Program-made: the position numbers and the translations under genes | Assembly (NCBI GenBank): GCA_049602075.1 | Contig: JBMYRF010000020.1 | Span: forward strand, 68,240-132,239 | Direction of reading: 5' to 3' | Length of the DNA: 64,000 bases | Origin: Rubripirellula sp. | GTDB taxonomy: Bacteria; Planctomycetota; Planctomycetia; Pirellulales; Pirellulaceae | Part shown: positions 1 through 60,291 of the stretch, piece after piece | Layout: every line of letters starts with the position of its first letter | Position numbering within the stretch: position 1 is the first letter of the stretch | The notes under the pieces: generated by a model | What the model saw: the letters and a program-made list of their open reading frames with translations, nothing else | Databases searched by the model: none | What the model was told of the DNA's origin: nothing

Positions 1-931
1 CAAACCCTCGCCCGTCATCACTCAGGTAAGTGAGCGTTCCGGGAGCGATTTGATTCTCAGGGATGTCATCTTGCCAACGGGTTGGGCTCTCTGGGTTTCG
101 GAAGGGTCGGCAAAATAGATTGTCGAATACCAGTCCGCCACCAGATACCTGGGTCAAGGACCCATTCATGGCTGCCGTACGGATATCTCGCTCACCTAAA
201 TCGGTCGCGATTTCACCCGCTGCGATCGTGTTGGACAAACCATCGAGAATGTCACGGAAGCGAGTCGTCATACGAGTCACGAACACGCCGCGGCCGGATG
301 CACGCATCTGTTGCGACAAGAAGTTCTCGGCCGAGTTAGGCTCACGGAGATAGTAATAAGGGATGCCGGTGTGATTCCAGCTACTCGCATCGCCAAGGCA
401 AGCGGCGTAGTTAGTTCGGCCGCCGGCAGGCAATCCGTTGCCCGGATCGCTTGGGCAGCGAAACGTAGGAATCTCAGTTCGCCAAGGAACGTACTGGGTT
501 CCGATCCCCCAGTTATGTGGCGTTGGACCCATCGCTGGCCATGGCTGGTCGATCGATCCAGGTCCCGTAGTCCGGCCGTCAACTCGTTCCGTGCTTGGAT
601 TGCTAATCTGCTCCCATAAAGCTTGCTGCTCGACGAAAGGTAGCAAACCAACCAAGTAACTCAAGGATTGCCGGTTCACTAGCGCATCTGGAAAACCGAA
701 AAAAGAGACGTTCTTTCCAGTACCCGCACCCTGCCGCGGCAACTGTTTGTACGTCGAATGATAATTGTGCATTCCCAAGCCAATTTGCTTGAAATTATTG
801 CTGCAGCTCATACGGCGAGCTGCTTCCCGGGCCGCTTGGACGGCTGGCAAAAGCAAGCCGACAAGCACGCCAATGATGGCGATAACCACCAGCAGTTCAA
901 CCAATGTGAACGCTGCTCGAGACTTTTTCAT
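1..931 (-). CDS. DUF1559 (SBP_bac_10) prepilin-type N-terminal cleavage/methylation protein; 3' end runs off the window
   Basis: Not in the ORF track because there is no stop in the window. Manual translation from ATG at 931: [60 protein letters not shown]...RCPSDPG...RTNY...[18 protein letters not shown] lies just upstream. Confidence 0.95.
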
Positions 932-967
932 AAAACGACCTCTTGAAAAAAGAACAAAAAAAACAGA

Positions 968-1859: not shown

Positions 1860-1934
1860 GGTGGCTGTAGCTCAGTTGGTTAGAGCATCGGATTGTGGTT
1901 CCGAGGGTCGGGGGTTCGAATCCCCTCAGCCACC
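1860..1934 (+). tRNA. tRNA-His (GTG)
   Basis: GTGGCTG/CAGCCAC acceptor stem, D-arm AGCTCAGTTGGTTAGAGC, anticodon arm TCGGA-TTGTGGT-TCCGA, T-loop GGTTCGAATCC. G-1 (1860) and C73 (1934) are the tRNA-His identity pair. The 3' CCA is not encoded. Confidence 0.97.
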
Positions 1935-2039
1935 CTTCTCCTAGATCGGCAGGGTTTTTGCGCATCTCAACTGACGCTCGCCTGGTCAACAGTAGCTCTC
2001 TGTACTAGCCAACCCCGGCCCATTGGGGCGTCCGCAGGC

Positions 2040-2193: not shown

Positions 2194-3681
2194 CTACGGA
2201 AGTTCGAGGTCGACACCGCACAAGACAAACGCTCGGTCGGGTTCAGTGGTTCCATCTCGTTGCCGTTCTTGACGAAGGCGTTCGATGTCGGCGTAGGCTT
2301 TGGCTGCTTGCGCAGCATCGATTTGTCCGCCCGATTGATCGAAGCTGACCCGCATCGCTCTCCAGGCAAGTGCCTCGAGTGGACGTTGTAATTGATCAAG
2401 TAAGTCAGCAAGCTTTCGCATTTCATCTGCGGTAACTGATCCGCCGGCAAGTTTTTTCCCAATCGTCTGTGTCTGACCGATTAGTTCGGCTCTTGCTGTG
2501 ATTCGGTCTGCGTCGTTTGACCGGTTGAGTGCTACCAAGGACTTGGCGAGCCATTGGTAAGCGTCTTGGTTCGTTGGGTCAGCGATGATGACCGAGGCGA
2601 GTGCTTTTGCCGCTTGATTGGCCTCCTCGATTTGTAATTGATAGACACCCCAGGCAAAGCTTGCCTCCGGATTGGCAGGGGTATTCGGGTACTCGCGTAG
2701 GGCCCACTGCTTCAATTTTTCTCGCTGTTGCTGCTGGGCGTAAATTCGACCCCGCATCGCAACGACTTCCTCTGTTTGCTCGCTGCGGTCGAGATCTCGT
2801 TGTGCCTTGTCCCATTCGCCCCGCCCTACCGCCGCTTGGGCACGTCCCAGTGGAGTGATGGGGTCCACGTTCTCAGGCAAGTTCATTTGATCGGAGAGTG
2901 GAATTGAAATCTTCAGCAACATCATCAGCTCAGGCAAGTTAATGTCACCGGAGGCGCAAAGCGACTGAAAGATTCTTGCCGCTTCCAGGCGTCGACCTTG
3001 ACGCAAAAACATCAATGCGAGTTGGCGGTCGATAAACGATTGCGAGGCGTCGTCGACCTCATGGCGGAGCGCTTGATATCTTTTTTCAGCCTCATCTGTT
3101 TCGCCCATTTCAACCAGCCACTCGGCAGTCTGCCCGATGGCTGGAAGCCAAGTTTCCGGGTGGGCCGCCGCCAAGCGGTCAAGCGTTCGAACCGCTTCGT
3201 GAAAACGCCTTCGGGCAGCCAGTCCGCGAGCGACCGTGAAAAGCACGTTGGGATCGTCGGGGGCGAGTTCTCTTGCTTGGAATGCCACTTTCAATGCAGA
3301 CTCAGTTTCCCCGGTTTCCAGTAGCTCAATGGCTTTTTCGACCAAGCTCTCTGGAGAGGCCAAACGCTCAGGAGAGGCGAGGCTATCGACAGAGAGTGGC
3401 ACTCCGGCGGTTGCTGGTGCAGTTGTTGCGGGGCTGGCGATTCGCTGTGAAACGCCAATTGATCCAGCCTCGGTTGTTTTCTCTGCTGGCGGGGCGATCG
3501 GCTCAAAAGGTTCGGGGGCAATTTGCTGATCAGCCTCGCTCCCGCAGCCGGCTATCATCAGGCCAAGCAGACTGGCCGCGAGCATGCCTGCGAATTTTCT
3601 AGCCGGATCGAACCCAGTGCCCGATCTTGGGAGGCCGTGATCGTTCCAATGGGAGGAATTTCGAAACGCGTTTTGCATCAT
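2194..3681 (-). CDS. TPR-repeat lipoprotein, homologous to the N-terminal half of the neighbouring FG-GAP/ASPIC proteins but without the FG-GAP domain
   Basis: 495 aa ORF with lipobox IAG-C and TPR-like helices (APDDPNVLFTVARGL, ADPTNQDAYQWLAKSL). Its LCASGD motif matches LCRQGD/LCKLGD of the paralogs. The start ATG overlaps the upstream stop (ATGA, 3678-3681). Confidence 0.85.
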   Translation of the reverse strand: MMQNAFRNSSHWNDHGLPRSGTGFDPARKFAGMLAASLLGLMIAGCGSEADQQIAPEPFEPIAPPAEKTTEAGSIGVSQRIASPATTAPATAGVPLSVDSLASPERLASPESLVEKAIELLETGETESALKVAFQARELAPDDPNVLFTVARGLAARRRFHEAVRTLDRLAAAHPETWLPAIGQTAEWLVEMGETDEAEKRYQALRHEVDDASQSFIDRQLALMFLRQGRRLEAARIFQSLCASGDINLPELMMLLKISIPLSDQMNLPENVDPITPLGRAQAAVGRGEWDKAQRDLDRSEQTEEVVAMRGRIYAQQQQREKLKQWALREYPNTPANPEASFAWGVYQLQIEEANQAAKALASVIIADPTNQDAYQWLAKSLVALNRSNDADRITARAELIGQTQTIGKKLAGGSVTADEMRKLADLLDQLQRPLEALAWRAMRVSFDQSGGQIDAAQAAKAYADIERLRQERQRDGTTEPDRAFVLCGVDLELP

Positions 3682-4970
3682 GGTTCAGGATGGATACGGA
3701 TCCAGTGGTCGTGGAATTCGGTTCCGTACTCATCAATCGTTGTGGAAGGCATGTGGCATTCAATGCAATTCGTGGTCGCCGAGACTGGGCAGACGGTGTG
3801 AGGCTTGGCTGACGATGTTTTGGTTGTTTTCGGTTCTGTCGCAAGCTCTGACGCTGTTGCCTCGGAGTGATGACACTCGATGCACTTATCGATGTAAACC
3901 TGAGGCTCGATCGCGGTGATCGTGGTATGGGGGTCGTGGCAGGTGGTGCATTTCAGCTGTCCCTCTGATTCGAGATAGCACTCGCTTCTCAGCAATCCGA
4001 TCGGCTGGAAACGTGTTAACGGTTTGGGGTACTCGCGAAGCTCTGTTTGTGAGATTGCGGCGGGCATCCGGTGGCAGTCGCCGCAAAGTTGAATTTCGGC
4101 TTCCGCATTCCAGTCTTGTTTGCCCACCGAAAATGGTGGAGGTGGATTCATGCTGCGGGCTTGTTGGACGTGCACGCTGCCGGGGCCATGGCACTTCTCG
4201 CAATTCACGTTGGGGGTCAGGTTAACGATCCCTTGGTTCTCAATCGTACCCGTCGTCACATGGCAATCGACGCATTTTCGCATGACTTCGCCAACGTGCT
4301 TTTGGCCGAAAAGTTCGCTCAATGTTTCTGGTTGGGTATGCAGCTGGCCGGGGGTGGCTCCCAATTGATCGCCATTGCGATACCACGACGCACGGTGCTC
4401 GATCCCGACAGTCCCTTCCTTTGGGTCGGGAACAAGCGACAAAAGTGTCATTCCATGATGGCCGGAACCGAGCGCATACTGCAGTTGAAAAGGTTGATCG
4501 CCAAACTTTGCTGGAATCTTGGCGAGCAATCCGTCTTTGCCAGATTCGTAGGTGTAAGTTCCATAGCCTTCCGGCGTGGTGTAGGTGCGTCCTGAGAATT
4601 TCTCGACAACTTCGGGTTCGTCTGCCGCGCGGAACGTGTGCGCGTGGCCGTGCGCGGCGTGTAGACGATGGTTCTCAGCGTGGCATTCCCCGCAAACCTG
4701 TTTGCCCACGTAGGTTGCATTATGGTTGAGCGATGTTTGCGCGGTGGTCGTGGCGATGCGATTGAGCTGATTGCCACTAACCGGTTCGACTGCCAGAGGC
4801 GAGTTCGTCTCAGGGGTTTCAGCGCCGACCGGCGGCTGAGCTCCAGCTGGCGATTCCCGCCAAAGGCTGATGTAAAAGACCGCTAAGGTGCTCGAAGCGA
4901 TCAGCGCGATAGAGGTTGAACGGCTCGGTTTCAAGGCTTTATTTGCTGTAGCGAGATCGACGGGAAACAC
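3678..4970 (-). CDS. Multiheme c-type cytochrome (7 CXXCH; cytochrome c554/c'-like N-terminal part)
   Basis: CGECH, CVDCH, CEKCH, CGDCH, CTTCH, CIECH, CIECH. N-terminal hydrophobic signal/anchor segment. Start codon uncertain. Confidence 0.9.
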   Translation of the reverse strand: MFPVDLATANKALKPSRSTSIALIASSTLAVFYISLWRESPAGAQPPVGAETPETNSPLAVEPVSGNQLNRIATTTAQTSLNHNATYVGKQVCGECHAENHRLHAAHGHAHTFRAADEPEVVEKFSGRTYTTPEGYGTYTYESGKDGLLAKIPAKFGDQPFQLQYALGSGHHGMTLLSLVPDPKEGTVGIEHRASWYRNGDQLGATPGQLHTQPETLSELFGQKHVGEVMRKCVDCHVTTGTIENQGIVNLTPNVNCEKCHGPGSVHVQQARSMNPPPPFSVGKQDWNAEAEIQLCGDCHRMPAAISQTELREYPKPLTRFQPIGLLRSECYLESEGQLKCTTCHDPHTTITAIEPQVYIDKCIECHHSEATASELATEPKTTKTSSAKPHTVCPVSATTNCIECHMPSTTIDEYGTEFHDHWIRIHPEP

Positions 4971-5061: not shown

Positions 5062-5093
5062 AAAAAAACCTCGCCCACAAAGGAGCGAGGTTT
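5062..5093 (-). terminator. Rho-independent terminator downstream of the DUF1559 gene
   Basis: Minus strand reads AAACCTCGCTCCTTTGTGGGCGAGGTTTTTTTG: a GC stem (CCTCGC/GCGAGG) followed by U7, about 30 nt after the stop at 5122. Confidence 0.8.
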
Positions 5094-5121
5094 CTGAATG
5101 ATCGGCAAATGATCTTTAGAA

Positions 5122-6414
5122 CTACTGATTCAGTTGCTCTTCGATCGTTTCGCGGCCATTTCGGCTACCGAGTGCACCCCACAAACCGTAGGGGCTCTTG
5201 GCACCGGCGTTCCATGGGCGATTACTTCCCCAAGGATGGCCAATGGTTCGAGCACTCTGATCACCAGCTTCAATCGAGTCGGTGATGAAGACAACAGCAC
5301 CATCAGCCATCAGGATGTGAACACCACCTTGGTGACGGCTACTTGGCGGTGAAGTACCGACGTTGTCGTACCAGTGCGCGGTGCAAACTTCCGAGTTTGG
5401 AGGACGGATGGTGTGAACTGCGGTCATTGACATGGTTGCCCATGCCCAGTTCATGCCACGGCCAGCCTGTCCATCCATTAGGCGTCCTGGCTGGTTGCAG
5501 TTTTGACTGGTTGGGCCACACCAGAAATTCGGACGTTCTGGATCGATCCATTGACGTTCGACACAGAGCAGCGGATTGTCATCGACAACCCAACTTTGTG
5601 CGGGTGCAGCGAGTGCACTTCGCTTGTCGAGGTCGCCAAGGTCAGTGATGATTTCGCCACCAGCAACCGTGTTGGACAAACCATCCAGGATGTCACGAAA
5701 TTTAGTGTCTTTTCGCTTGGAGAAGACTCCACGGTCGGCAGCGGTGAAATATTTCGCACGCCAATTGTCACCCATGGTCAGGTTATGGTTCTTAGGACCG
5801 TGATCCCAAGTTTGGGTCCAAGAGTCACCCAGGCATACGCCGTAGTTGGTTCGACCGCCGGCTGGCAAGCCTTCGCCAGGATCGCTGGGACAGCGCAGGG
5901 TCGGAATCTCTGTAACCCAGGGAACAAACCGGCGTGATTCTTGACCGTTTCGATCGAGGCGTGGATTCGGCCCCATCGGTGGCCAGTAGCCGAGTTGGCC
6001 GGCTGCGCGTGGGAGAGGGTACGGGTTGCCGTTTGGATCGAGCGCTGTTTCCGATCCACCATTAGCGATTTTTTCCCAGAGAGCTTGTTGCTCCAGGAAA
6101 GGAGTCAGGCCAACTAGAGCGCTGAGCTCTTCGTTGTTCGTCGTGCTCGAGCCTTCCCACCAGGCATTGTTGCCGTCGAGAACGCCGAGGCCTGTGCCGC
6201 CGTAGTGGCGAGGCAATTGTTTGTATGCGGAGTGGTAGTTGTGCATTGCCAAGCCGACTTGCTTGAAATTGTTGCTACAACTCATCCGACGGGCTGCTTC
6301 GCGAGCGGCTTGTACAGCCGGCAGCAGAAGCCCTACAAGCACGCCAATAATGGCGATTACGACCAGTAGTTCCACCAGCGTGAAACCACTTGACGTCTTC
6401 CTGCGTAAAGACAT
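5122..6414 (-). CDS. DUF1559 prepilin-type N-terminal cleavage/methylation protein with C-terminal H-X9-DG motif
   Basis: G|[45 protein letters not shown] and [14 protein letters not shown] (H-X9-DG). GGAGG RBS. Confidence 0.96.
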
Positions 6415-6534: not shown

Positions 6535-9500
6535 GTGTTAAGGGAATTTTATCGGCTTTTATGTCGAGGATATGTGGTTAATTGCGACCAAAGTGCTCCT
6601 TTGCGGTCGCTCTTAGGGACCTCGCTGGATTCGGGGGGTGTCCGTTTCCCCTTCTTGCCGTGTTTCAAGAAGCTCGGAAATTCGGGCCTTTGTCTGTGTT
6701 TCTTCACGTTTTTGGTCCTCATTTCACTTGGCTGCAATCGGGCAGCATCCGACCAATCCGGGAAGATCGAGCCAAAGGGAGCGCAGCGCGTCGCAGAGAG
6801 CCCGTTGGAGCCCGATCCGGCCGTTGCGATGCGGGCCGCCGTGGCGGCCCGCGATTGGCCGACAGCGGCCAAATATTCAAAGTTGGCTTTGATCGAGAGC
6901 CCAGAAGACCCCGACCTGATCGCGATGGCGGCCGCCATCACCGCGTTCCAAGGCAGGAAGCGGGAAGCTGCGAGGATGTTAGCAGAAGCTGCTCGCATCG
7001 CTGATTACCAGCCCATTTCCCGAGTCGAGATGGCTGTTAGCGGCTTGACGGGGGTTGGGGAGATCTATCCCGCGATTGAGCTGCTCGAAGCGTCGTTGCA
7101 AAAGCATCCGAATCGAAACGAGCATCGGCAGATGCTGGTCGGCTTTTGGAATGAGATGCAGCGAACCGATAAGATTCCGCCGCATCTGCAAAAACTGATT
7201 CAGCAGCGAAGTTTTTCGTTGGCATTGTTGGTGACAACGACGGAGACTGGCTCGCGGCGTTTATCCGAAAAAACCTCCGAACGTTTGGAGGAGCGGAACC
7301 CGGATGATTTGCGCAGTCGGCTCGCCGATGCCTTCGTCTTGCTATATCGGCGGAATGCGGCAGAAGCCGTTGAGATACTGCAGGAGATGTTGGAACGTCA
7401 TCCCGACTTCGCGCCCGCGCATGCGATGTATGGGCAAGCCTTAGTGGCATCTTTGCGATGGTCGGACATCCCTGCTTGGGTAGAGCAATCGGTCCCCGGC
7501 AGTCGCGACTTTGCCGATCACTGGCTGACTTTGGGCGACTTTGCGATGGAGCAACAGCAGCCGGCGCAAGCGGTGCGAGCCTATTGGGAAGCAACCCGCC
7601 GAGATCCAAACCAAAGCATTGCTTGGGATCGCCTTCGCCTTGCGATTCAGCGGTTACGAGCATCTGATTCGCCGCAGGCAACCGAAGTCACGGAACAGCA
7701 AGTCGCAGTGATCGCAGAGCACGCCAATAATTTGCTTGCTGCCCGCGAGGCATTCAACGATTTCACCGGCAGCATGGAGAGCCAAACCGGGGCAATGCAG
7801 TTAGCCGAAGCACTTGCGAAGGTCGGTCGGACCTGGGAGGCAGAAGCGTGGTCTGCGCTAGCTACGACGATGACGAAGCAGCCAAATAACCGACTGGAAG
7901 CGGTTCGCGCCGCGATCGTTGCGACGCTACAGCGTGATCCGAGTTGGTTTGCGAAGGAAACGCCAGCGCATCGGCTGGACTTTTCGGCTCTCCCCCTGCC
8001 TGTCATCAATGCCGGCCGGAGTGAACCAATCAATAATTTAATCGTGCCGCGGGTCGTCATGCATGATCACATTCTGATGAAGGACGTGACCAATCAGGTT
8101 GGGTTGCGCGGTGTGGGTGATGGGAACGATCCTTCGGACCCTCGCTTGGCGGCATTGATTCGATCGACAGGTACCGGTGGTGGATCGCTTGATTACGACC
8201 TGGATGGGTGGCCCGATTTGCTGGTGATGAATGCGGGTGGATCGATGTTGGAGATGGATTCTTTACCAAACCAGTTGATGCGAAATCTGGAAGGCAGGTT
8301 TGTCTCGGTTGGAAAGATCGCGGGCATTGATGACACGCATTATGGCCAGGGGTTAGCGGTCGGCGATTTCAACGAGGATGGGTTTGCAGATTTGTTCTTT
8401 GCTAACTTGGGTGAAAACCTCTTGCTGCGAAACAATGGGGACGGAACGTTTACCGATTGCACCGAGAATCTTGCTGGTAATCGAATCCGGTCCTGGTCGA
8501 CCTCCGGGGCGTTCGTTGACATGAATGGGGATGCGATCGCGGATTTAATCACGACTCAATACTGCCTCCCCGTTGCAAAACTGCCAGATCCTTGTGCCAA
8601 AGAAAACGGTGAATTAGGGCCATGTCATCCGCTGACGTTTCCGGCTGACACCGATCAGTTCTTTGCTGGTTCGCCAAGCGGTGAATTTGCGGAGGTTACC
8701 AAGCGATGGGTTGGCGATCCTGTGCCGGGACGGGGGCTCGGAGTCCTTTCGGGCGCGTTGGATGGGCGGTCGCTGGGGATTTTTGTCGCCAATGATATGT
8801 CCCGGAATTCTTTTTATGCGCAGGCAGATTTCAGCGACAGCAGTTCGAGCAAAATGAAGCTTGTGGATAGCGGTTCCGCCCGCGGTGTTGCGGTAGATGG
8901 CAGGTCACTCGCTCAAGCTTCGATGGGAATTGCCGCCAGTGATCTAGACCACGATGGCGATTTGGATCTCTACGTCACTGGATTCGGCCGCGAATACAAC
9001 ATCTACTACGAACAGATCGCGCCAGGGCTGTGGAAAGATGAAACGGCCAAGCTGAATTTGATCGAACCGACACTCTCTCTGGTTGGCTTTGGTACGCAGG
9101 CGATCGATCTCGATAATGATGGCATCGACGAGTTGGTGATCACCAACGGTAATATCGGTGAGTTTATGGACCCGGATCGTCCCTATGCGCAACCGATTCA
9201 GTTTTTTCGTCGCGATCGTGATGGGCGGTTCGCCGAACTCGACGACGATGCATGGGGTGAGTATTTTCGGACCAGTCACGTCGGTCGCGCGTTATGGATA
9301 AGCGATGTGAATCGCGACGGAAGCAATGATTTGGTTGTGACCCACACTCGCGAACAGATCAGCTTATTGGTGAACGAGTCGGCTGATCAGAACAATCGGA
9401 TCGCGTTTAAGCTGACTGCGACGCGAAACAGTCGCGATGCCGTAGGTGCGGTGATTCGTTTTACCGTTGACGACAAGCGGCGAGTGGTGTGGATGCTGTC

Positions 9501-13448: not shown

Positions 13449-16400
13449 TTAACGATCAACTGGCTCGCGATCAGTTTCTTCGTTCAGCGAAAACGGTGCA
13501 CTCTGGTTTTCAATGACCAGCAACCGCTGATTGGTTTGCAAATCTTGAATCGACTGTATTTTTCCACTTGGCCAGTGAATGGTCATTTCTTCCACCGTTT
13601 CAATTTCACCCAAGCCAAACGAAATCATCGGTTCGTTACGACAAAAGAAACCATCGCCCGCTGTCACCCACTCGGTAAACTTTCGATTGCCGGCGCGGAG
13701 TTCGACGCGTGCTCCCACTGCATCTCGTTCACTTTCGACGCCTCGCAAGACAAGTTGAACCCAGTGATTCGAATTTGGGCTTTGGTTCACAAGCAACGCC
13801 GAAGACTCTCCAAGATGCGTGACGACAAAGTCAGGAAGCCCATCACGATTCCAATCCAATCTTGCCAAGCCCCGTCCAAGGTGATTGCGGTTCCAGTAAC
13901 CCGAATCATCAGTCACTTCGGCTAGCTCGAAACGGTCACCCAGGTTGCGGAATAACTGGACCGGTTGCGCGAACGGGGCCCCGCTGTTGACGGAATCCTC
14001 AATGTGTCCGTTTGCGACGACCAGATCAAGATCTCCATCGTTTTCATAATCGAGTGCTTGGGTTCCAAAGCCTAAAACCGATTGGCTTGGCACTGCAAAT
14101 CCGAATTGAATGTTCCGATCCTGATACATGCCCTGCTCATTCAAGTAGTGGCTGACGCTTTCGCCTTGGAAATTGGTGATGTGAAAATCGAGCCACCCAT
14201 TCCGATCAAAATCACCGGCGGCGATCCCCATTGATGCTGTTTTTGCTCCATTGAATCCATAGGCACAGCCGATCAGCATCGCGACATCGGTCCAGTCACC
14301 CGATTTTGCGTCCCGTTGCCAGAGTTGATTTGCGTAGACGTCATTGCCAACGAAAACCTCGTTCCCAGGTTGGTGGTCAAAATTTCCCACGACAACGCCC
14401 AGCCCAGCACGAGCGGCGGTCTCCGGTTTCCCCATTGGTAAAAAAGTGGGATCGCCTTGAGCGTTCCCGATGATCAGGCGGTCGAGCCCCGGTTGAAATT
14501 CCTTGGGCATCAGCGTTTCGATCACTTGCCCCTGCGGATTGCGACGCGGGCGTTTACTGATCTGTGAATCATGAATGTAATTCACTTCAAAAATGTCGGG
14601 AAGTTGATCACCTGTAAGATCACCCATTGCCAGCGAAGTGGTCATTACCGTCGTGTCGTCAAGGTCATCCAGTGCTTGTCGGCGAAAGGTTCCATCACCG
14701 TTGTTGATTAGTAATGTGTTCGCACCGATGTTTGCCACGACGAGATCTGGGAATCCGTCCTGGTTCCAATCGCCGGCAGTCACACCTAAGGAATAGCGGT
14801 AGTCCGCCGCGCCAGCAAGTTCCGTAATATTGCGGACTTTTACACCTTCACCGCGGTAAAGTTGATTGCTGCTGTCGCCCTGAAAGGTAGGAGGATCACC
14901 GCCGCCTTGAGAAAAATACAAATCGATTTGGCCATCACAGTCGTAATCCAAAACCGCCACGGCACCACCAACGGACTGGTAAACCGAGAATCCGTTGGTT
15001 TGCAATTCGCTGGCGACTTGGAAAGCGTGTTGTAGACCGATTTCGTCTGCCCTGTTTGCAAAGCTAGCTGGCAGATGGTTCGCGTTCTGTGGACCAAGAC
15101 CGGTGGACGTTACTGTGTTGGACTTGATCAGCGAGGCGAGGTTTGGGAGCGGGAATTGTTCTCGATTAATTTGGCAAATTCGCGAACGGATGTGCGAGAG
15201 ACTATCGCGATTGCTGGCTGCACTCGTCAACTTAGAGTAAAGCGGTTGCAGTTGTTCGGCGGATAGTTTCCGATGGAACCCTGCTACCAAACGCCAGACA
15301 GTCGATTCAAGTTGACGATCCATTGAATCAAGTAGCTCGGCTAGGTTGTCCATCGCCTCCACATTCGGAGTGGCGGAGTCGACGATCCGATTGTTTTCTC
15401 TGGCGATTGCTTCGAGGTTTTGGAAACGTTTTTCCAGGCGAATCGCCTCTTCCGGCTGGCCGAGCGATTCCAGGATGGATCGTAGTCGACTGATTGAGCG
15501 AAAATCGGTCGGGTCACGAACCAGCGCCTCGATCAACGCTCGCCCCGCTTCGGGAAGACGGTTTTCTGACAACAGGACTAGTCCGAGGGCGGCCCAATAA
15601 TCGGCATGTTCCTGTGTTTGTTGATCGACGTGAGTTAGCCACCAATCAATGCTCGGTTCGTCTTGCGCTTCCGCTGCGGCACGCCCGAACAGCGCTAGCA
15701 CAGATGGCGGCTGTTTTCCTGTCGTCACGGCAGTACGCAGTACCTCGACGGTTTCTTGATACTTGTCTTCCATGAACAGTCGTCGCGCTTCGGCCGCTGG
15801 CCCAATCGGCCAGTAAGGTCTTTCGGCAGGATCACCGGGGGCCTGCCCCTGCGGCGTATACATCGCATCGCTCAGTTGGATCAAAGCGTGTAGTTCATCC
15901 TGCTGGACATCACCCTGGCGACACAATTGATAAAGATGCGTGGCGGCTTCGTGGCGACGACCTTGACGGTTATAAAGGTATGCCAAATTGCGATGTGCTT
16001 GGCTCGCCAGCGGAGCGACTTCCAAGATCTTCAGGTAGCGTTCTTCGGCTTCCTGGTACCGTTCCAAGAAAAAACACCAATCGGCTGATTGGCCTAGTGC
16101 GGGTAGTCCTGCATCCGGATGATCGGAAGGAATTGCATCAAGCAGTTCGATCGCTTGCGCGAGATCATTTCGATTGGCAACGAGCATCGCCAAGCGAAAA
16201 ATAACTTCTGCATCAGTTGGGTCTCGGACGAGCAACGACTTGAGTTTTGCCTCGGCCGAAGTGACATCGCCGCTGGCAAGCAACTGCCCGATCGATTCGA
16301 GCTCGGCATCGCGATTGACGATCTTGTTGGGTGGTTCGGCGTTTGCGTTGGGCCGCGATTGTGAGGTGTCGGTTACTGCTGACGGGTTTCCTGTTTCGGC

Positions 16401-16622
16401 TGACGGGGTTTTGCTGGAGGGTTTTGATCCGTTGAATGATTCTGATTCCTTAGGACTAGTCGTCGACGGTTCGGATTTCGTTGGTGCGGGTGTGATCGGG
16501 ATTTCATCCGTCTCGCAGCCTGCCTGGGGCAGTATCCCGAAGCTCAACGTAAGTGTCAGAATCAGTGGTTTGATGGTGGTCGAGATTGCTCTCGAATGCC
16601 TTGGGAGCACCAGCGTCTTCAT
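13449..16622 (-). CDS. TPR + FG-GAP + ASPIC/UnbV lipoprotein, paralog 3
   Basis: 1057 aa. Lipobox QAG-C, DYDCDGQID, DWNQDGFPD, DLTGDQLPD, DFDRNGWLD, DYENDGDLD, DWNRDGLPD, ERDAVGARV...GDGFFCRNE. Confidence 0.93.
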   Translation of the reverse strand: MKTLVLPRHSRAISTTIKPLILTLTLSFGILPQAGCETDEIPITPAPTKSEPSTTSPKESESFNGSKPSSKTPSAETGNPSAVTDTSQSRPNANAEPPNKIVNRDAELESIGQLLASGDVTSAEAKLKSLLVRDPTDAEVIFRLAMLVANRNDLAQAIELLDAIPSDHPDAGLPALGQSADWCFFLERYQEAEERYLKILEVAPLASQAHRNLAYLYNRQGRRHEAATHLYQLCRQGDVQQDELHALIQLSDAMYTPQGQAPGDPAERPYWPIGPAAEARRLFMEDKYQETVEVLRTAVTTGKQPPSVLALFGRAAAEAQDEPSIDWWLTHVDQQTQEHADYWAALGLVLLSENRLPEAGRALIEALVRDPTDFRSISRLRSILESLGQPEEAIRLEKRFQNLEAIARENNRIVDSATPNVEAMDNLAELLDSMDRQLESTVWRLVAGFHRKLSAEQLQPLYSKLTSAASNRDSLSHIRSRICQINREQFPLPNLASLIKSNTVTSTGLGPQNANHLPASFANRADEIGLQHAFQVASELQTNGFSVYQSVGGAVAVLDYDCDGQIDLYFSQGGGDPPTFQGDSSNQLYRGEGVKVRNITELAGAADYRYSLGVTAGDWNQDGFPDLVVANIGANTLLINNGDGTFRRQALDDLDDTTVMTTSLAMGDLTGDQLPDIFEVNYIHDSQISKRPRRNPQGQVIETLMPKEFQPGLDRLIIGNAQGDPTFLPMGKPETAARAGLGVVVGNFDHQPGNEVFVGNDVYANQLWQRDAKSGDWTDVAMLIGCAYGFNGAKTASMGIAAGDFDRNGWLDFHITNFQGESVSHYLNEQGMYQDRNIQFGFAVPSQSVLGFGTQALDYENDGDLDLVVANGHIEDSVNSGAPFAQPVQLFRNLGDRFELAEVTDDSGYWNRNHLGRGLARLDWNRDGLPDFVVTHLGESSALLVNQSPNSNHWVQLVLRGVESERDAVGARVELRAGNRKFTEWVTAGDGFFCRNEPMISFGLGEIETVEEMTIHWPSGKIQSIQDLQTNQRLLVIENQSAPFSLNEETDREPVDR

Positions 16623-23486: not shown

Positions 23487-24165
23487 CGCAGATACCGTTG
23501 TGGTTGAACAGGTGATGCAGTTGCGAGCAAAGCGTTTTCGGCTTGTGACTTTGCGAGCAACCTCAAGTTCGAAACTCATCCCCGAAAAGTGGGGCTGCTC
23601 TTGTACCGAACGCCGCCAGACGACGCGATGTCGGTTTTGGATGCTGGTCGGTCCTCAGGCTGGATTTTGGGCGGTGCAATCGTTCTGATGACGCAGCATT
23701 CAACGGCAGTTGGGAATGCCGGGCATACTTTCGACGATTTTGCAGTTGTTCGATACTCTGACGACCAGGATGCATCGAGTAACAACAACCTTTCAAAACT
23801 CCTGCCGCCGCCCCGGAAAAACTCCTGGGGATTTGTGGGACGCATGCCGGGATTCTCAGGGAGGGATGGCGAGGGACTGCGACGATGCTGGGGTTGTCAG
23901 TTTGGGGTTTTCAGTTTGAATCGATGCGGATGCGTGCCGGTGTTGCTCCAGGCTGGTACCGCCAAGGCAGAGTTCTGGTGAGTTCTGGTTAGGGTCAACG
24001 GTCGTCGATTCGGGGGACCGGTTCGGGGGACAGTGGCGATTTGCAATTCCTCTTGAAGCGGGGAATGCGTTTCCCCTGGATGGCGAGCAGCGGGAAAGAT
24101 AGGCAAGTGATGTAATGCAAGCTCGATGCGTTGTGAGAGTTCGCCGAAGCAATTATGTTCGGGGG

Positions 24166-26103
24166 ATGGGTTGGTGTCTTCGATATTTGCTGCTGTCGAT
24201 TTTGGTCCCCGGGGTGATCCCGTTGGCGCATGGGCAGGGAACGACGATCGCGGAGGCAACGGCCTGGATTCGCACCGAATTCGAGCGTTTAGATCGCGAC
24301 TTTGATCGCAGCTTGGGGCAAGCGGAGTTTTTGGCTCGCGATGTAGAACCGGCGGTCTTAAAACGGGATTTTATTCTGTACGACGGTGACCGCAGTGGAA
24401 CGCTCTCCTTGGCAGAGTTCGCGGCCGTCTCCGGGCTTGTGCCACCCTCGCTGCGAGGGACCATGTCTGACCCCTTTGATGATCTGGTTTCTGCCGCTGT
24501 TGCTGCGCTCGATGAATCGTACGACGGTTGGAATCAACGACCCCGCGAGTTGGTCAACGCTCATACCTTTGTTTCCAATTTTTTAGGCTCCATTTCACCT
24601 GGTAGCAAACTATTTGTGACCGGTCGAATTCTTCGTCAAGCCGATCAGGATTCTGATGGAAGATTAAGCCGATCAGAAGCGAAACACTTCATCGAACAAC
24701 AGCTTGGTTATCGGTGGTACACTGGGCCACCGCTTCGCGAACCGACTGGGCGACTTGTACGTTTTGACTGGTTTCTCGATGTCGATACTGATCAGAGTGG
24801 ATCACTGACTCGAGAAGAATTTGATCGCGGTTGGTGGAACCGAGCCAATCTTGAATCGGACTTTCTAGAGAATGATCGTGATGGCAACGGTCAAATTTCA
24901 TACGCGGAATATGGACACCCTGATTCCAAGCAGTACTTTGATCCAATTGAATGGTTCCGCGGAGCAGATCAGAACTTGGACGCCTTGTTAGATGCCGGTG
25001 AGATGTTTGCCGCTAGCGATGATTCCCGTCGGCAATTGGTCGCTTCTTCCTTCCACGGTTTCGATGCGAATGGTGATGAGCGGTTGACGCTCGACGAGTA
25101 TCGCTTGTCCTTACATGCCAATGTAAATTTTAGTTGGCAACGGAAACCGGTCGACAAAAATCGCGACGGGCGGTTGTCGTATGACGAGTTCCAGTTTCAC
25201 TCCTTTGATTTGTTCCACCTTCAGCGACGCTATTTCTTTCATCGGCTCGATCGTGACGCTGACGGATTTCTTAGTCGTCAGGAATTTGCATTTCAGTCTC
25301 GACGGCCTGATGGGGTACACCTCCTGCCGGTCCGTGGTGGTTCATCGCGACTTTTGTTTCGTGACCCGGAGTTCCCACGTTGCGGGTGGCCGGTGTTGTC
25401 CCCTGATGGTTCAAGCGTGTTGTTCCATCGTCGTCGGCCTGACGACGCGACGGGCCAAATCGTGCGTTTCGACGTTGAATCTGGTAAGTCCAGTGTGCTG
25501 ACCGATGGTTTGCAGCCATCTTGGTCACGAAATGGCCGTCGCTTTGTTTGCACACGTAAGACGGGCAAACGTGGAATTTGCATCATGAGCGAGACGGGAG
25601 ATATCATTGAACAATTGGGGGAAGGATCGTCTGCAAAATGGTCTCCCGATGGTCAGTTGATTGCTTTTCTGCATGACAATGGGGTGTGGGTTCATCACGT
25701 TGCTAATGGCCAGCGTCGTTGCTTACTGGAACGAGATCAGCATGATTATCAAAACTTGGGTGACGACATTGCTTGGTCCCCCGATAGTGGGCGAATCGCC
25801 TTCGTGGGCCGCACAACTGCTCGATCTGACCTGATCCTGTTGAAGGTTGACGATTCAACGTGGTCGACTCGATTTCAATTTCCACCAAACCAACAGGTGG
25901 TTGGTCACTTGAACTGGAGTCATCAACGGGGCATTGTCTTTCAATTGCATGATCAACTTCGTGATGCGAAGGAGTTGTTAACGTTGGGACCGGAGGATCA
26001 AGCGGATCCAACGCCGGCAAAATGGCTCTCCTCAGATCGGCTTTGGAAATCGGCTTGCGTCAGCCCTAGCGGTATTTGGTACACGGCAATCTCGGAAAAT
26101 TGA
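24166..26103 (+). CDS. Secreted multi-EF-hand protein fused to a PD40/TolB-like beta-propeller
   Basis: Signal peptide. Nine EF-hand-like loops (e.g. DGDRSGTLSLAE, DTDQSGSLTREE, DRDGNGQISYAE, DKNRDGRLSYDE). C-terminal LSPDG/WSRNG/WSPDG/WSPDS repeats. Start 24166 or 24115. Confidence 0.85.
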   Translation: MGWCLRYLLLSILVPGVIPLAHGQGTTIAEATAWIRTEFERLDRDFDRSLGQAEFLARDVEPAVLKRDFILYDGDRSGTLSLAEFAAVSGLVPPSLRGTMSDPFDDLVSAAVAALDESYDGWNQRPRELVNAHTFVSNFLGSISPGSKLFVTGRILRQADQDSDGRLSRSEAKHFIEQQLGYRWYTGPPLREPTGRLVRFDWFLDVDTDQSGSLTREEFDRGWWNRANLESDFLENDRDGNGQISYAEYGHPDSKQYFDPIEWFRGADQNLDALLDAGEMFAASDDSRRQLVASSFHGFDANGDERLTLDEYRLSLHANVNFSWQRKPVDKNRDGRLSYDEFQFHSFDLFHLQRRYFFHRLDRDADGFLSRQEFAFQSRRPDGVHLLPVRGGSSRLLFRDPEFPRCGWPVLSPDGSSVLFHRRRPDDATGQIVRFDVESGKSSVLTDGLQPSWSRNGRRFVCTRKTGKRGICIMSETGDIIEQLGEGSSAKWSPDGQLIAFLHDNGVWVHHVANGQRRCLLERDQHDYQNLGDDIAWSPDSGRIAFVGRTTARSDLILLKVDDSTWSTRFQFPPNQQVVGHLNWSHQRGIVFQLHDQLRDAKELLTLGPEDQADPTPAKWLSSDRLWKSACVSPSGIWYTAISEN

Positions 26104-38420: not shown

Positions 38421-39081
38421 GATTTTTTTTAATAGCAACCGAAGGAAATCGTCGCACTGAGCTCAAGCGCGAAATAGGTCTCAGCCTCCCCGGCAAGCCA
38501 GGGCATTAAAGCGATCGGATCATCCTGCGGCATTCTAGCAGAGGAGAAAAATGAGAACGCCTACAAAAAGATGGTACCAATGCCAGCATCGGGAGGGTAG
38601 CTGCGTTCGCGCCGATTGGTTAGCCGTTAGGTCATAAGGTCCCAATTTGGCTTGATTTATCGCCACCCTCAATCAGGCTTCGTGCCCAAATTCTTCGGAG
38701 TAACAATGCCACTGTGAGCCTTGCAGAAGGCACGCCGCACTCCTTTTAATTTGCATGCAGGGGATCTTCCGAGACCGGGATCGGTTCGCCGAAGTAATAA
38801 AGTGCTGAAACTTTGGCCATCGCGGGCCAGTAATAAGGGGGACGCAGGGCGGCCTGCCAGGGCAGCTGAGGGCAGCAGCTGAGGGCGAATGGGTGATTCG
38901 GGCAAAAGGAAAGTGACGAAACAGGCAGAAACTAGCGACGGCGTGAGGGGTTACAAGTTTTGCAGCGACCTCTGCGCCCGCCGAAGAGCCATACCGGCCG
39001 GTTTTGTGATCGGTTTGTAGCGATTCGGTAATTACTATGGCGAACTGGTATACAGCATTCAATTTCGACGCGGTTCTCAGC

Positions 39082-42033
39082 ATGAAATCGATTTTTAATC
39101 TTTGTTTTTTTGCCCTCGCGGGTGTCTTGCTTTTCCCTGAGGGGGGGTATTCGCAGGGTTCAGCCCCAACCGCGGATGTAGCGGCTCAAGATTCGCCCGG
39201 ATCCGATCAGAATTCAGGCGGCGAATCGAAGGCAGCCGAAACGGCTGACCCGGCGGTCGCTCAAGACCCGCCTGCCGTCAGTGAGACACCAGCAAGTACC
39301 TCAACCCGAGTGGCTCCAGCGCGGCCAGTTATGCCGGCTGAACCTGTCTCGCCAACCGACAAGCAACAGCTGAGATTCAGTTTCGCGGGGACAGCTTGGC
39401 CACAAGTCCTGGATTGGTTTGCGGAAGAGGCGGATCTCGCACTCCAGCTTGACCAGTCACCTTCGGGGAGTTTCACCTTTTCGGATCCAACCAGGACCTA
39501 CAGCATTGCTGAAGCTCTGGACGTCATCAACTTGACGCTGATGAAGAGCGGATACACCCTGGTGCGTCGCGGTCGGATTCTGCAGGTGATCGATTTGGAA
39601 TTAGAAAACGCTGACAAAATGATCAGTGAGATTGCTGAACTCGTCGCCCCCGATCAGTTGGGCGAACGAGGGAAGAGCGACGTCGTTAGCAGTGTGTTTC
39701 CGTTGGGCAGCATGACACCTACCGAGGCTCGCGAAGAGATCTCTCAGATGGTTGGTCCATGGGGGCGCGTGATTGTGCTCGACTCGGCTCGCCAGGTGAA
39801 GGTAACTGAGACGGCAGGCAAGTTGATGGCGATTCGCGATTTGTTGGATACCGCATCGCAAGCTGACTCCAACGTAATCGAAATTGTTCTGGAGAACCGT
39901 GGTGCTGATGAGCTGCTAGAAATTGCTCGCCCACTGCTGGGTTTGGACGCGGGAGAGAACTCCGGAGATGACATCCGAATCTCGGTCGGACTATTTGGCG
40001 ACCGAATTTATGCTGCCGGCCTACCGGGGAAGACAGGTTTGCTGCAATCGATCGTTGAGAAAGCAGACCAGCCGCTTGAAGTGCCCGAGGGTGAAGAGGG
40101 AGCGGAAGTCGCCAAGCCAGTTTTCCAAACTCATACGGTTAGCTCAGCAGATATCACGACCGTGTTCGACGTGCTGCAAACGTTGCTCGCTGGGACACCA
40201 GAAGCTCGCATTGCGATTGATCCAAAAACGAATGCGATTATCGCCTGGGCACGCCCTGAGACCCACAAATTGATCGATACCACGGTCACAGAAATGGAAG
40301 GAAAAGGGACCAGTTTTAAAGTGATCGATTTGCGCCGGCTCGACCCAACTCAAGCTCTTTTGACGATTAATAAGTTCTTTGGTGTTTCCGAGGAGGGTGA
40401 AGGCGATGGACCAATCGTCGATGGTGACCCGGCAACCGGCAAGCTTTGGGTCCGGGGCACTGAGACCGAGATTACCTTGATCGAGAAACTGCTCAGTGAA
40501 TTAGAAGGCAGTGACTCGCTGGGGGGCTTGAGTGAGAAAGTTCGCCTGCTTCCTTACAGCGGTCGTGCCGCCGAGGATGCCCTGGAACAAATCGAATCGT
40601 TGTGGCCGGTAACTGGTCGAAAGAATCAAATCCGTACGTTCTCACCCTCGCGTGGGAATGGCGGATCCAACGGTGATCGCGGCGGTATTCCCGAGCGACG
40701 CGTTCCGCGTCGACCCGCGCCAGCAAACACACTTCCAGTGGATACCACCGAGGCTTCAGTTCAGCCGCAGCAACGTTATCACCTGGTCGTCGATCAAGAC
40801 GTAACCGGTGCGACCGAGGCAACGCCGACGGTGGCGACGACACCACAAGATTCCTCCTCCCTCCGCTTGAATGTGGAAGGGGCCGACATCGTCGTTCAAA
40901 TGACGCCCGCAGGAATGCTGATTGCATCGGAGGACACCGAAGCGCTGGACGCTTTCCAATCGTTGTTGGAATCACTGGCAACGCCATCGGGTGTTGCTTC
41001 GGATTTGCCGACCATCATCTGGTTGAAATACATCAAGGCGGACGTCGCTTCCGAGTTGATCGCGAAAGTGCTTGGTGGCGGCGAAAGCTCGATTTCATCA
41101 GCCGTCGAGTCGGTTGCTGGAGGTCTTGGTGGCGGTATGTTGGGGCTGCTTGGCGGATTCGGTGGTGGCGGTGGTGAATCGACTGGAGCTCAATCAATCC
41201 TCACCAGCTCTGGATCGGTCAACATCGTGCCCGACCCTCGGCTCAACGCGCTGATTATCCAAGCGAATCCAATCGACATGCAGATGATCGAGTTAATCCT
41301 CGAAAAGATCGACATTCAAGAGAGTCCCGAAGATGTTGAAACGGTTGCTAAGCCCGCGCTGATTCCTGTGATCTACCAAGATGCCTCGGATGTCGCGACG
41401 GTCGTTAAGTCAGTGTTCGCCGATCGGGTCACAGGTGGTGAAGCGAGTCGTGGTGGCGGTGGTCGTGGTGGACAGCCATCACCGGAGGACTTCATCAACG
41501 CCCTTCGTGGTCGAGGCGGTCGCGGAGGTGGCGGAGGTGGTGGATCCGCAACGAGTGAGCCAGCCAAAATCAGCATCGCTGTGGACACGAAAAGTAATTC
41601 CTTGGTTGTGACGGCGACTCCCCAGGACTTCAAGGAAGTGCGAGAACTTGTCGAGGCACTCGATTACAGTAGCCAGCCGAGCGAGGAAGTGGTCGAGATC
41701 GCTCCCTTGCGCGGTGATGTGAATCCTGAGGTGATCAAGCTGGCGTTGGAGTCAATCCTGGGGCAGCAGACCGGTTCGACGAAAGAAGCTTCCGCTAATA
41801 AAACACCTAGCAGCGGTAGCGGTAGTGGCAGTACTAGCAGTAGTTCACAACCGAGCACGTCAGACATTCAACGCCGGATAGAAGCTTTTCGTGCGATGCG
41901 AGCTGGAGCCGGTGGCAGTTCTGGCTTTCGCGGATTTGGTGGTGGCGCGCCAAGTGGTGGTCGTGGCGGGGCGGGCGGTGGCGGTGGCGGGCCAGGCGGT
42001 GGTCGTGGCGGGCCGGGTGGCGGCGGACGCTGA
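39082..42033 (+). CDS. Secretin N-terminal-domain protein (GspD-like N0 plus about 7 NolW-like repeats, no secretin C domain)
   Basis: Signal peptide. N0-like LRFSFAGTAWPQVLDWFA...FTFSD. Repeated units such as IAIDPKTNAIIAWA, IVPDPRLNALIIQA, IAVDTKSNSLVVTA. Ends in a Gly/Arg tail. Upstream of gspE-gspF. Confidence 0.85.
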   Translation: MKSIFNLCFFALAGVLLFPEGGYSQGSAPTADVAAQDSPGSDQNSGGESKAAETADPAVAQDPPAVSETPASTSTRVAPARPVMPAEPVSPTDKQQLRFSFAGTAWPQVLDWFAEEADLALQLDQSPSGSFTFSDPTRTYSIAEALDVINLTLMKSGYTLVRRGRILQVIDLELENADKMISEIAELVAPDQLGERGKSDVVSSVFPLGSMTPTEAREEISQMVGPWGRVIVLDSARQVKVTETAGKLMAIRDLLDTASQADSNVIEIVLENRGADELLEIARPLLGLDAGENSGDDIRISVGLFGDRIYAAGLPGKTGLLQSIVEKADQPLEVPEGEEGAEVAKPVFQTHTVSSADITTVFDVLQTLLAGTPEARIAIDPKTNAIIAWARPETHKLIDTTVTEMEGKGTSFKVIDLRRLDPTQALLTINKFFGVSEEGEGDGPIVDGDPATGKLWVRGTETEITLIEKLLSELEGSDSLGGLSEKVRLLPYSGRAAEDALEQIESLWPVTGRKNQIRTFSPSRGNGGSNGDRGGIPERRVPRRPAPANTLPVDTTEASVQPQQRYHLVVDQDVTGATEATPTVATTPQDSSSLRLNVEGADIVVQMTPAGMLIASEDTEALDAFQSLLESLATPSGVASDLPTIIWLKYIKADVASELIAKVLGGGESSISSAVESVAGGLGGGMLGLLGGFGGGGGESTGAQSILTSSGSVNIVPDPRLNALIIQANPIDMQMIELILEKIDIQESPEDVETVAKPALIPVIYQDASDVATVVKSVFADRVTGGEASRGGGGRGGQPSPEDFINALRGRGGRGGGGGGGSATSEPAKISIAVDTKSNSLVVTATPQDFKEVRELVEALDYSSQPSEEVVEIAPLRGDVNPEVIKLALESILGQQTGSTKEASANKTPSSGSGSGSTSSSSQPSTSDIQRRIEAFRAMRAGAGGSSGFRGFGGGAPSGGRGGAGGGGGGPGGGRGGPGGGGR

Positions 42034-42288
42034 GTCTGACACAAACTTGGTCGGTCAAGCCGCGCGACTTAAAAGCTTGGTTGCCAGCATCACCGGGCGT
42101 CCAAAATTAGCAGATCTCATCGTGGTTGCGTCGAGCGGAAGCTAGCGAGCTAGCGAGTTCCGTTGCTGCAAGTTAGCAGCCGATGGAAAAAGTGGGAGCG
42201 AGTGTCGCGACTCGTCGGTGTCGAGTAACGAACATCAGTAACAGCAGACGGACTTGGCAAGCGGACCAGGAATAGAAGGAGCCGAACT

Positions 42289-59812: not shown

Positions 59813-60291
59813 GGTGAAGTTGGGCTGGCAAGAACACCAGAGCACGAGGGAGACTCTGCCGGAATCGGTTCGGGCACGACAAGTTCAATCTTCGAGTTTA
59901 GTCGGCCTCCGAGAGGCTCTCAACAAAATTCGGGAAGGATCGGCGATGGACTACGAAAGTCCTTTTATTGCAGTCCTAACGGCTGTAGCGGTCAAGGGAA
60001 CCATGCATGGCGAGGGGCGTTTCGGTGAGAACCGTGACAGTCTGCCACGGATGCATCCGCTCGTTTCAAACGAAACCGTACTAATTTCCCCCAAAATGTA
60101 GGGTGAGGAGACCGCGTATCGATGTTGCGTGAATCAAACTCTGAAGGCTACCTCGGCCTATTTGGTGCGCCGACAGGGCGTGGTGTTGCCGCAGAGAGAC
60201 CAGTTGTTTCTCGATGATTTTTCGCAGGATCAAACGGAAAAAATGGGCAAATCTCTTCCAAGCATGGCTCCACTGATGGGAAATGCCCCTC

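Follow-up and report, generated by a model that had tools for sequence, protein, structure and literature searches.

We analysed a 64,000-nucleotide (nt) stretch of a Rubripirellula sp. contig (the window), in which a gene for a c-type cytochrome with seven CXXCH heme-binding motifs lies directly before a gene for a protein of tetratricopeptide repeats (TPR). Both open reading frames (ORFs) are on the minus strand. Nearby we detected a DUF1559 gene and four genes for TPR-FG-GAP-UnbV proteins (paralogs P1 to P4; Table 1). The TPR module is therefore present in two forms within one cluster, fused N-terminally to Ca-binding FG-GAP/UnbV propellers and standing alone beside the heptaheme cytochrome. 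An earlier note on this DNA had proposed that the 495-amino-acid (aa) TPR protein is a portable module, detached from its propeller and coupled instead to the cytochrome. As described there, the neighbouring cytochrome has seven CXXCH motifs and the ATG of the TPR gene overlaps the cytochrome stop as ATGA: the junction reads GAA CCA TGA TGC on the minus strand, with the TGA of the cytochrome at 3680-3678 and the ATG of the TPR gene at 3681-3679.

Table 1. Features of the cytochrome-TPR locus and its surroundings in the window
Feature	Position	Strand	Basis
tRNA-His, convergent to the TPR gene	1861-1935	+	
Stand-alone TPR lipoprotein (predicted), 495 aa	2194..3681	-	ORF and translation, Pfam, AlphaFold2 (AF2), homology to paralogs
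ATGA start/stop overlap of the cytochrome and TPR genes, 4 nt	3678..3681	-	Reading of the minus-strand sequence
Heptaheme c-type cytochrome, 430 aa	3678..4970	-	ORF and translation, CXXCH count, Pfam
Strong terminator-like hairpin, 13 pairs and a T-run, between DUF1559 stop and cytochrome start	5064..5095	-	
DUF1559 / H-X9-DG protein with prepilin-type N-terminal methylation motif, pseudopilin-like	5122..6414	-	Pfam, NCBIfam
TPR-FG-GAP-UnbV (CRTAC1-like) lipoprotein, type P1	6535..9699	+	Pfam
TPR-FG-GAP-UnbV paralog, type P2	10230..13226	-	Pfam, BLASTP
TPR-FG-GAP-UnbV paralog, type P3; TPR module in the class sister to the stand-alone clade	13449..16622	-	
TPR-FG-GAP-UnbV paralog, type P4, in tandem with P3	16633..19794	-	Pfam, BLASTP, PDB match

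The 495-aa protein matches the N-terminal half of the TPR-FG-GAP-UnbV paralogs collinearly, as had been claimed for it. BLASTP gave E values of 6e-32 against P3, 4e-30 against P4, 8e-13 against P2 and 0.017 against P1, the last of which is still detected by a hidden Markov model (HMM) of the family at 1e-08. Over the fused proteins this HMM scored from 1e-08 to 4e-74. The alignment with P4 reaches residue 492 of 495, and the protein stops at the domain boundary before the propeller, 7 residues past a conserved F-V-L-C488-G motif. One alignment row (window:16633-18330) covered the C-terminal and not the N-terminal part of P4 and was ignored. The peptides quoted in the earlier note are present, apart from one misreading: the window has VIIADPTNQDAYQWL (VIIADP), not LIADPTNQDAYQWL (LIADP).

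Twenty-five alignment columns are conserved across stand-alone and fused modules, including the DPTD and R-P-x-E-A-x-x-W motifs, and the homology is specific to the paralogs' N-termini, going beyond a generic likeness among TPRs. Another 11 columns are conserved in the stand-alone clade only, mostly near residues 150-185 of the window protein; positions specific to the stand-alone form also include Y375, a Q-T-Q-x-I-G segment and F485. Two cysteines are conserved to different degrees in the two forms: C242, in L-C-x-x-G-D, is invariant in 17 sequences and found in 83% of fused modules, and C488, in F-x-L-C-G, is at least 90% conserved in the stand-alone form and much rarer in fused modules (31%). 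The pair might serve as a disulfide or in redox chemistry.

Since the alignment of the 495-aa protein with the paralogs extends to the domain boundary, where the protein ends, it could in principle be a recent truncation or a pseudogene of a fifth TPR-propeller paralog. A protein search returned 18 relatives with 33-99% identity, all but one of which are 360-507 aa long and lack a propeller; the exception (P0007) is a fusion protein described below. Stand-alone relatives terminate 1-25 aa after the shared F-x-L-C-G. When 128 modules from related loci were placed in a neighbour-joining tree, all 70 of the stand-alone type (30-99% identity) fell into one pure clade that keeps this common stop position, and its sister is the fused class that holds P3 and P4. 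When 1.84 billion representatives were searched exhaustively with a profile, 240 clusters passed E<=1e-30, and their scores showed a distinct break: about 60 stand-alone clusters (50% identity level, 425-523 aa) scored above 340 bits and fused proteins of about 1000 aa reached 336 bits at most. The single pure clade, the score break and the shared stop indicate that the stand-alone form is conserved and that its split from the fused form was single and old. There is also no propeller remnant downstream of the stop, where a tandem repeat and the convergent tRNA-His are found instead. Given the 70-member clade, the roughly 60 clusters and the common stop, we regard truncation as ruled out for all practical purposes; at this position the relatives have no intact FG-GAP domain. 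The tandem repeat, between the TPR stop and the tRNA gene, has a 17-bp unit (GTCCTTCTCGCCGGTTG, 2040-2093, 3.2 copies, 97% matches), and no terminator-like site was found after the TPR gene on the minus strand.

Pfam gave only TPR matches in the 495-aa protein (TPR_19, 36.4 bits with a cutoff of 25; TPR_14, 26.6 bits with a cutoff of 23.5). Neither FG-GAP, FG-GAP_3 nor UnbV_ASPIC was matched, nor was our propeller HMM, which places the protein outside the CRTAC1/ASPIC-UnbV family because both defining domains are absent. Its N-terminal hydrophobic segment ends in RKFAGMLAASLLGLMIAG-C46-GSE, with a lipobox-like LMIAGC, and a cysteine occupies the column aligned to C46 in 81% of the stand-alone relatives. 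The protein is thus predicted to be a lipoprotein with a signal peptide and lipobox. A Pro/Ala/Thr-rich linker of about 60 residues (aa ~47-105) follows, which is disordered in the AF2 model (predicted local distance difference test, pLDDT, below 50 for aa 1-105). The remainder (aa 110-490) is modelled as an all-alpha superhelix of about 20 helices with pLDDT above 90 (predicted template modelling score 0.72). The top Foldseek matches, all at probability 1.00, are a consensus TPR, APC/C and the TPR domain of OGT, and the modelled superhelix is long and scaffold-like, as in APC/C and OGT. The protein appears to be a cytochrome-dedicated member of the TPR superhelix module family.

The seven heme motifs of the cytochrome (CGECH, CVDCH, CEKCH, CGDCH, CTTCH, CIECH and CIECH) are all invariant in 17 homologs, and in the same alignment exactly seven further histidines are invariant (H104, H109, H192, H267, H348, H420 and H422). 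Because these seven lie outside the CXXCH motifs, all seven hemes are probably bis-histidine (bis-His) ligated, which would make the protein an electron relay rather than a carrier of a catalytic heme. A hydrophobic N-terminal helix (aa ~17-37) is either an anchor or a signal. Pfam assigned Cytochrom_c3_2 (38.5 bits, cutoff 25) and Paired_CXXCH_1 (33.3 bits, cutoff 20.6), with Cytochrome_C7 and Cytochrome_C554 also above their cutoffs, and a family search yielded 881 homologs. The decaheme families of NCBIfam scored far below cutoff (GSU2203, 38.1 bits against 325; DmsE, 28.3 against 192.2), and the only PDB sequence match was MccA (5.7e-05, over short stretches). In the AF2 model only aa 110-235 are confident; they include a beta-rich insert between hemes 1 and 2 (aa ~113-225, pLDDT 76-94). 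A Foldseek search of the PDB with this model returned nothing below E = 0.9, leaving the insert without a structural match, and with a poor model and no Foldseek match no fold was assigned. Beyond the 14 cysteines of the CXXCH motifs, two more are invariant: C331 is 10 residues upstream of heme motif 5 (C341TTCH) and C394 is 8 upstream of motif 7 (C394PVSATTNC402IECH). The two might be disulfide-bonded or be part of extended heme-binding motifs.

The pairing of cytochrome and stand-alone TPR genes extends well beyond the window. We scanned the surroundings of the cytochrome in one genome per species, labelling ORFs with HMMs built from the window proteins, and obtained 80 loci, nearly all labelled as genera of the Pirellulaceae (Rubripirellula, Stieleria, Novipirellula and Rhodopirellula) or as unclassified Planctomycetota, with up to three copies of the cluster per genome. 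The stand-alone TPR gene adjoins the cytochrome in 73 of the 80, co-directionally in 31 (cytochrome then TPR, as in the window) and divergently in 42. Of the seven loci without an adjoining TPR gene, three lack sequence on the side in question, and in one the TPR gene is found at a distance of 5.4 kb. Reciprocally, in a TPR-centred scan of metagenome contigs the cytochrome adjoins 19 of 22 stand-alone TPR loci, the other three being cut at a contig end, and three further contexts agree (3/3). The gene pairing is strict and roughly 1:1, and survives both changes of gene order and multiple paralogous cassettes per genome. The pairwise distances of one protein vary together with those of the other (Pearson 0.79, Mantel 0/999). 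Cultured carriers include Stieleria magnilauensis (three copies), S. marina, S. tagensis, Novipirellula rosea, Novipirellula sp. SH528 and Rhodopirellula europaea 6C.

The translational coupling that had been read from the ATGA is a more local matter. The overlap is present in the window, and 9 of 32 co-directional relatives have ATGA, five have other overlaps and two have possible GTGA/TTGA starts. In total about 14-16 of the 32 co-directional loci overlap, with gaps of 4-165 nt in the rest, and in the 42 divergent loci a start/stop overlap cannot occur. Any coupling would therefore be a local feature and not a property of the pair in general.

Unbiased clustering of all ORFs from 83 loci identified four families conserved around the pair: the cytochrome (C), the stand-alone TPR protein (T), the DUF1559 prepilin-like protein (D) and the TPR-propeller proteins (P). 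The other recurrent clusters were shadow ORFs. The recurrent layouts are P3> P2> <P1 D> C> T>, which is that of the window, and <P3 <T C> <D <P2. Where 10 kb of sequence flank the pair on either side (32 loci), T was found in 29, D in 28, P in 20 and all three in 19; DUF1559 is present in 61 of 80 related loci. The earlier note had suggested that the pair could represent an electron-transfer variant of a wider propeller system. As the pair shares its cluster with the propeller and DUF1559 genes, the cytochrome is instead a regular member of that cluster.

The DUF1559 product matches SBP_bac_10 (2.6e-61) and N_methyl (1.7e-07) in Pfam and pre_pil_HX9DG in NCBIfam (33 bits, cutoff 19). The hairpin downstream of its gene may be an attenuator, or a terminator separating the pilin-like gene from the cytochrome-TPR pair, and the DUF1559, cytochrome and TPR genes thus need not form one transcript. 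P1 diverges from the DUF1559 gene across a 120-bp spacer, an arrangement also found in L003, L004, L005, L007, L013, L014, L017, L027 and L028. All four paralogs combine TPR matches with FG-GAP_3, FG-GAP and UnbV_ASPIC in Pfam. P3 and P4 are tandem genes 10 nt apart (16622/16633) whose TPR modules belong to the same class. The invariant residues of the propeller are the Asp, Asn and Gly of the Ca-motifs together with a few Arg, Tyr, Met and Trp. No invariant His or Cys that might make up a redox site was found in it, which gives no support to a catalytic propeller that binds Cu or heme; judged by these residues, the domain more probably has a binding or structural role than serves as a metal redox site.

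Single polypeptides that join these parts were also found, both cytochrome-TPR, as the earlier note had proposed to look for, and cytochrome-FG-GAP-UnbV. P0007 and P0286, the latter found by a search with the former, are cytochrome-TPR fusions of 797 aa each that are 53% identical. Both contain a complete cytochrome (ending FHDHWIRVRDR), a short linker and a complete TPR module that lacks the TPR signal peptide, and no hidden signal peptide was found in the other reading frames of the P0007 contig. P0286 lies on a 103-kb contig beside TPR-propeller genes that are fragmented in that assembly. In P0295, P0296 and P0299 (922-939 aa) the same heptaheme cytochrome is fused directly to FG-GAP and UnbV_ASPIC without a TPR module, and a cytochrome HMM (5e-110) and a propeller HMM (1e-130) match within one ORF. 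P0295 is present on three contigs, and further propeller genes lie beside the cytochrome-propeller fusions. More distant heptaheme-TPR fusions are L001:4468-6462 (664 aa), P0304 and P0309. Together with the TPR-propeller proteins, all three pairwise combinations of cytochrome, TPR module and propeller exist as single polypeptides.

Directly upstream of P0296, a 985-aa protein (L114, 3-2960) weakly resembles the cytochrome family over aa 403-788 (1e-11). On the metagenome contig L001 (4468-7732) the divergent 664-aa heptaheme-TPR fusion is directly upstream of a canonical cytochrome, which is split into overlapping ORFs (6556-7383 and 7244-7732), by a frameshift or an assembly error.

Elsewhere in the window, a second DUF1559 gene at 1-967 (-) runs off the window start (HMM 7e-88); close relatives (L004-L006) likewise carry another DUF1559 gene on the far side of the TPR gene. 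Some 20 kb from the cluster, at 39037-45192 (+), are genes for a secretin (Secretin_N, 998 aa), a T2SSE ATPase (563 aa) and a T2SSF platform protein (403 aa). This machine, resembling a type II secretion system or type IV pilus, could handle the DUF1559 prepilin-like proteins. A 662-aa protein at 24115-26103 (+), a few kb from the cluster, has many EF-hand matches and a PD40 beta-propeller repeat and is of a Ca-binding envelope type. Two DUF1598 proteins are encoded close together at 55305-56981 (-) and 58439-59845 (-).

The conserved cluster and the three pairwise fusions are most simply read as one envelope assembly, and the rare fusions in particular suggest that cytochrome, TPR module and propeller are parts of a single redox complex of the cell envelope, so far undescribed. 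Our preferred reading, held with a little better than even confidence, is that the TPR module is an adaptor tethering a bis-His heptaheme wire to the Ca-propeller lipoproteins in the cell envelope. The stand-alone TPR protein would bind the mature cytochrome stably and roughly 1:1, and homologous TPR surfaces, or a shared partner, would bring the cytochrome wire into one complex with the TPR-propeller lipoproteins. The module would act as a connector that is covalent on the propellers and free beside, or fused to, the cytochrome. Where the cytochrome is fused directly to a propeller the linkage would itself be covalent; the long TPR module is absent from those fusions. The DUF1559 pseudopilin-like protein would be a further regular component, and the hemes would relay electrons to or from something that the complex holds or touches. 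The portability that the earlier note saw in the TPR module is borne out by the fusions and the pairing, which attach it to a propeller or to a cytochrome; a docking role is what these comparative data would imply.

Several observations weigh against this reading. The AF2 model of the cytochrome is poor (mean pLDDT 52, from a 17-sequence alignment), and binding of the two proteins is deduced from comparative data. About one third of the full-flank loci have no propeller gene within 10 kb, and propellers may thus not be indispensable to the pair. The fusion loci L115 and L116 keep a shorter, distantly related TPR gene two genes upstream, and the TPR protein may thus do more than bridge. The co-variation of distances is confounded by shared species history. 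Finally, of the data sets considered for expression only DNA metagenomes contain the locus, and one possible RNA run (short contigs, related organism) does not establish co-transcription.

Periplasmic TPR proteins encoded beside multiheme cytochromes are known maturation factors, and the stand-alone TPR protein could be a chaperone like NrfG or CcmI/CycH that holds the apocytochrome for heme attachment and stays outside the final complex. The strict, roughly 1:1 pairing would suit this role, as would weak sub-threshold TPR_CcmH_CycH matches in P3 and in the distant cytochrome-TPR fusions, and an NrfG-like TPR protein belongs to the uet cluster of Tenderiales (bioRxiv 10.1101/2022.05.06.490989). 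We nevertheless consider a chaperone unlikely. The 495-aa protein has no TPR_CcmH_CycH match at E<=0.01, the best 60 matches listed in a PDB profile search are generic TPRs with NrfG and CcmI absent among them, and no heme-lyase, ccs/ccm or nrfEF gene is conserved around the pair in the 83 loci, where the four families are the only ones to recur. Moreover, the same module is fused to non-heme propellers, and permanent cytochrome-TPR fusions in two diverged lineages fit a stable partner better than a transient chaperone. These fusions also speak against a catalytic, recycling factor for export or assembly, whether pilotin-like, PilF/TadD-like or Slam-like, that would place the cytochrome, the propeller lipoproteins or the DUF1559 pseudopilin in the outer membrane or at the surface. 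In favour of such a factor are the predicted lipid anchor with its long flexible linker, the constant DUF1559 prepilin-like neighbour and the secretin, T2SSE and T2SSF genes of the window. Some relatives are named 'Flp pilus assembly protein TadD', and there are weak TPR_Slam and PilW matches, but these are generic TPR assignments far below the family cutoffs. The strict partner of the TPR gene is the cytochrome and not a secretin, and no conserved secretion gene lies closer than 10 kb to the pair, which leaves an export factor improbable in our view.

We give similarly little credence to TPR protein and cytochrome being co-regulated but physically independent, both needed under the same condition. 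That 42 of the 73 pairs are divergently transcribed means that a shared mRNA is not required, as co-regulation of separate proteins would allow. Fusion proteins of both kinds exist, however, the pairing is kept through rearrangement and in multiple paralogous cassettes per genome, and the distances of the two proteins co-vary. The adaptor reading, in which the TPR module tethers the heptaheme wire to the propellers, is therefore the one we retain. A bolder version, which we advance only tentatively and consider rather doubtful, is that the cluster encodes a multi-copy envelope redox machine of Pirellulaceae, in which the heptaheme wire, joined to CRTAC1-like propellers by the TPR adaptor or by fusion and accompanied by DUF1559 proteins, might move electrons to or from a substrate that is outside the cell or bound to a surface, for instance a mineral, a polymer or humic material.

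We know of no function for bacterial CRTAC1/ASPIC-UnbV propellers or for DUF1559 pilin-like proteins. The cluster links both families to a heptaheme electron carrier through conserved synteny and fusions, which leads to the testable hypothesis of a redox-linked envelope complex, and work on it is practical since cultured strains carry the cluster. If the bolder version above is true, it would provide the first functional handle on two large orphan families, the bacterial CRTAC1/UnbV propellers and the planctomycetal DUF1559 proteins, of which Rhodopirellula baltica has 74 genes according to a 2009 paper (PMC2754498). The locus also illustrates cleanly how a single module can serve twice, as part of one partner's chain and as a separate protein next to another partner. 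We found no description of the cluster in the literature on DUF1559, UnbV, the CRTAC1 family, or multiheme cytochromes with TPR proteins in Planctomycetes.

Compared with known systems, the four paralogs belong to the CRTAC1/ASPIC-UnbV family of FG-GAP beta-propeller proteins, of which human CRTAC1 has a solved structure (PDB 9etn). The C-terminal half of P4 matches 9etn_A at 1.9e-13 over the propeller part only (aa 217-522 of the query half), and the bacterial paralogs add an N-terminal lipoprotein signal and a TPR module of about 400 aa. It is only this TPR module that the 495-aa protein, having neither propeller nor UnbV domain, shares with them. With NrfG and CcmI/CycH it has in common that a periplasmic TPR protein is encoded beside a multiheme c-type cytochrome. 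It differs from them in lacking a specific sequence affinity and nearby heme-lyase genes, in its much longer TPR array (about 10 repeats), in its predicted lipid anchor and in the stable fusions of its module to a mature cytochrome and to a non-heme propeller. The cytochrome resembles c554, c3/c7, the GSU2203 decaheme family and DmsE/MtrA as a CXXCH-rich periplasmic electron carrier, but differs in its seven hemes and beta-rich insert and in its low NCBIfam scores for GSU2203 and DmsE.

At the level of whole clusters, the uet cluster of Tenderiales, which is described for extracellular electron uptake, combines multiheme cytochromes, NHL beta-propeller proteins and an NrfG-like TPR protein (bioRxiv 10.1101/2022.05.06.490989), the same three kinds of parts side by side in an envelope-associated cluster. 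In the Pirellulaceae the propeller is FG-GAP/UnbV rather than NHL, the TPR module is itself fused to propellers, a DUF1559 gene is added, ccsAB or porin genes are not conserved and the hosts are marine. Around HZS-like genes of non-anammox bacteria, a CRTAC1-family FG-GAP gene is reported to be flanked by heme-protein genes, some with cytochrome c554-type domains (PMC12758564), which is an independent case of this propeller family linked to multiheme proteins. There the heme proteins are different (HZS alpha and beta-gamma homologs), the TPR module and DUF1559 are lacking and the taxa are others. The uet and HZS-like clusters are the nearest analogues in design, although neither has a TPR module on its propeller, a paralogous stand-alone TPR protein or a DUF1559 gene, the features that set the Pirellulaceae cluster apart.

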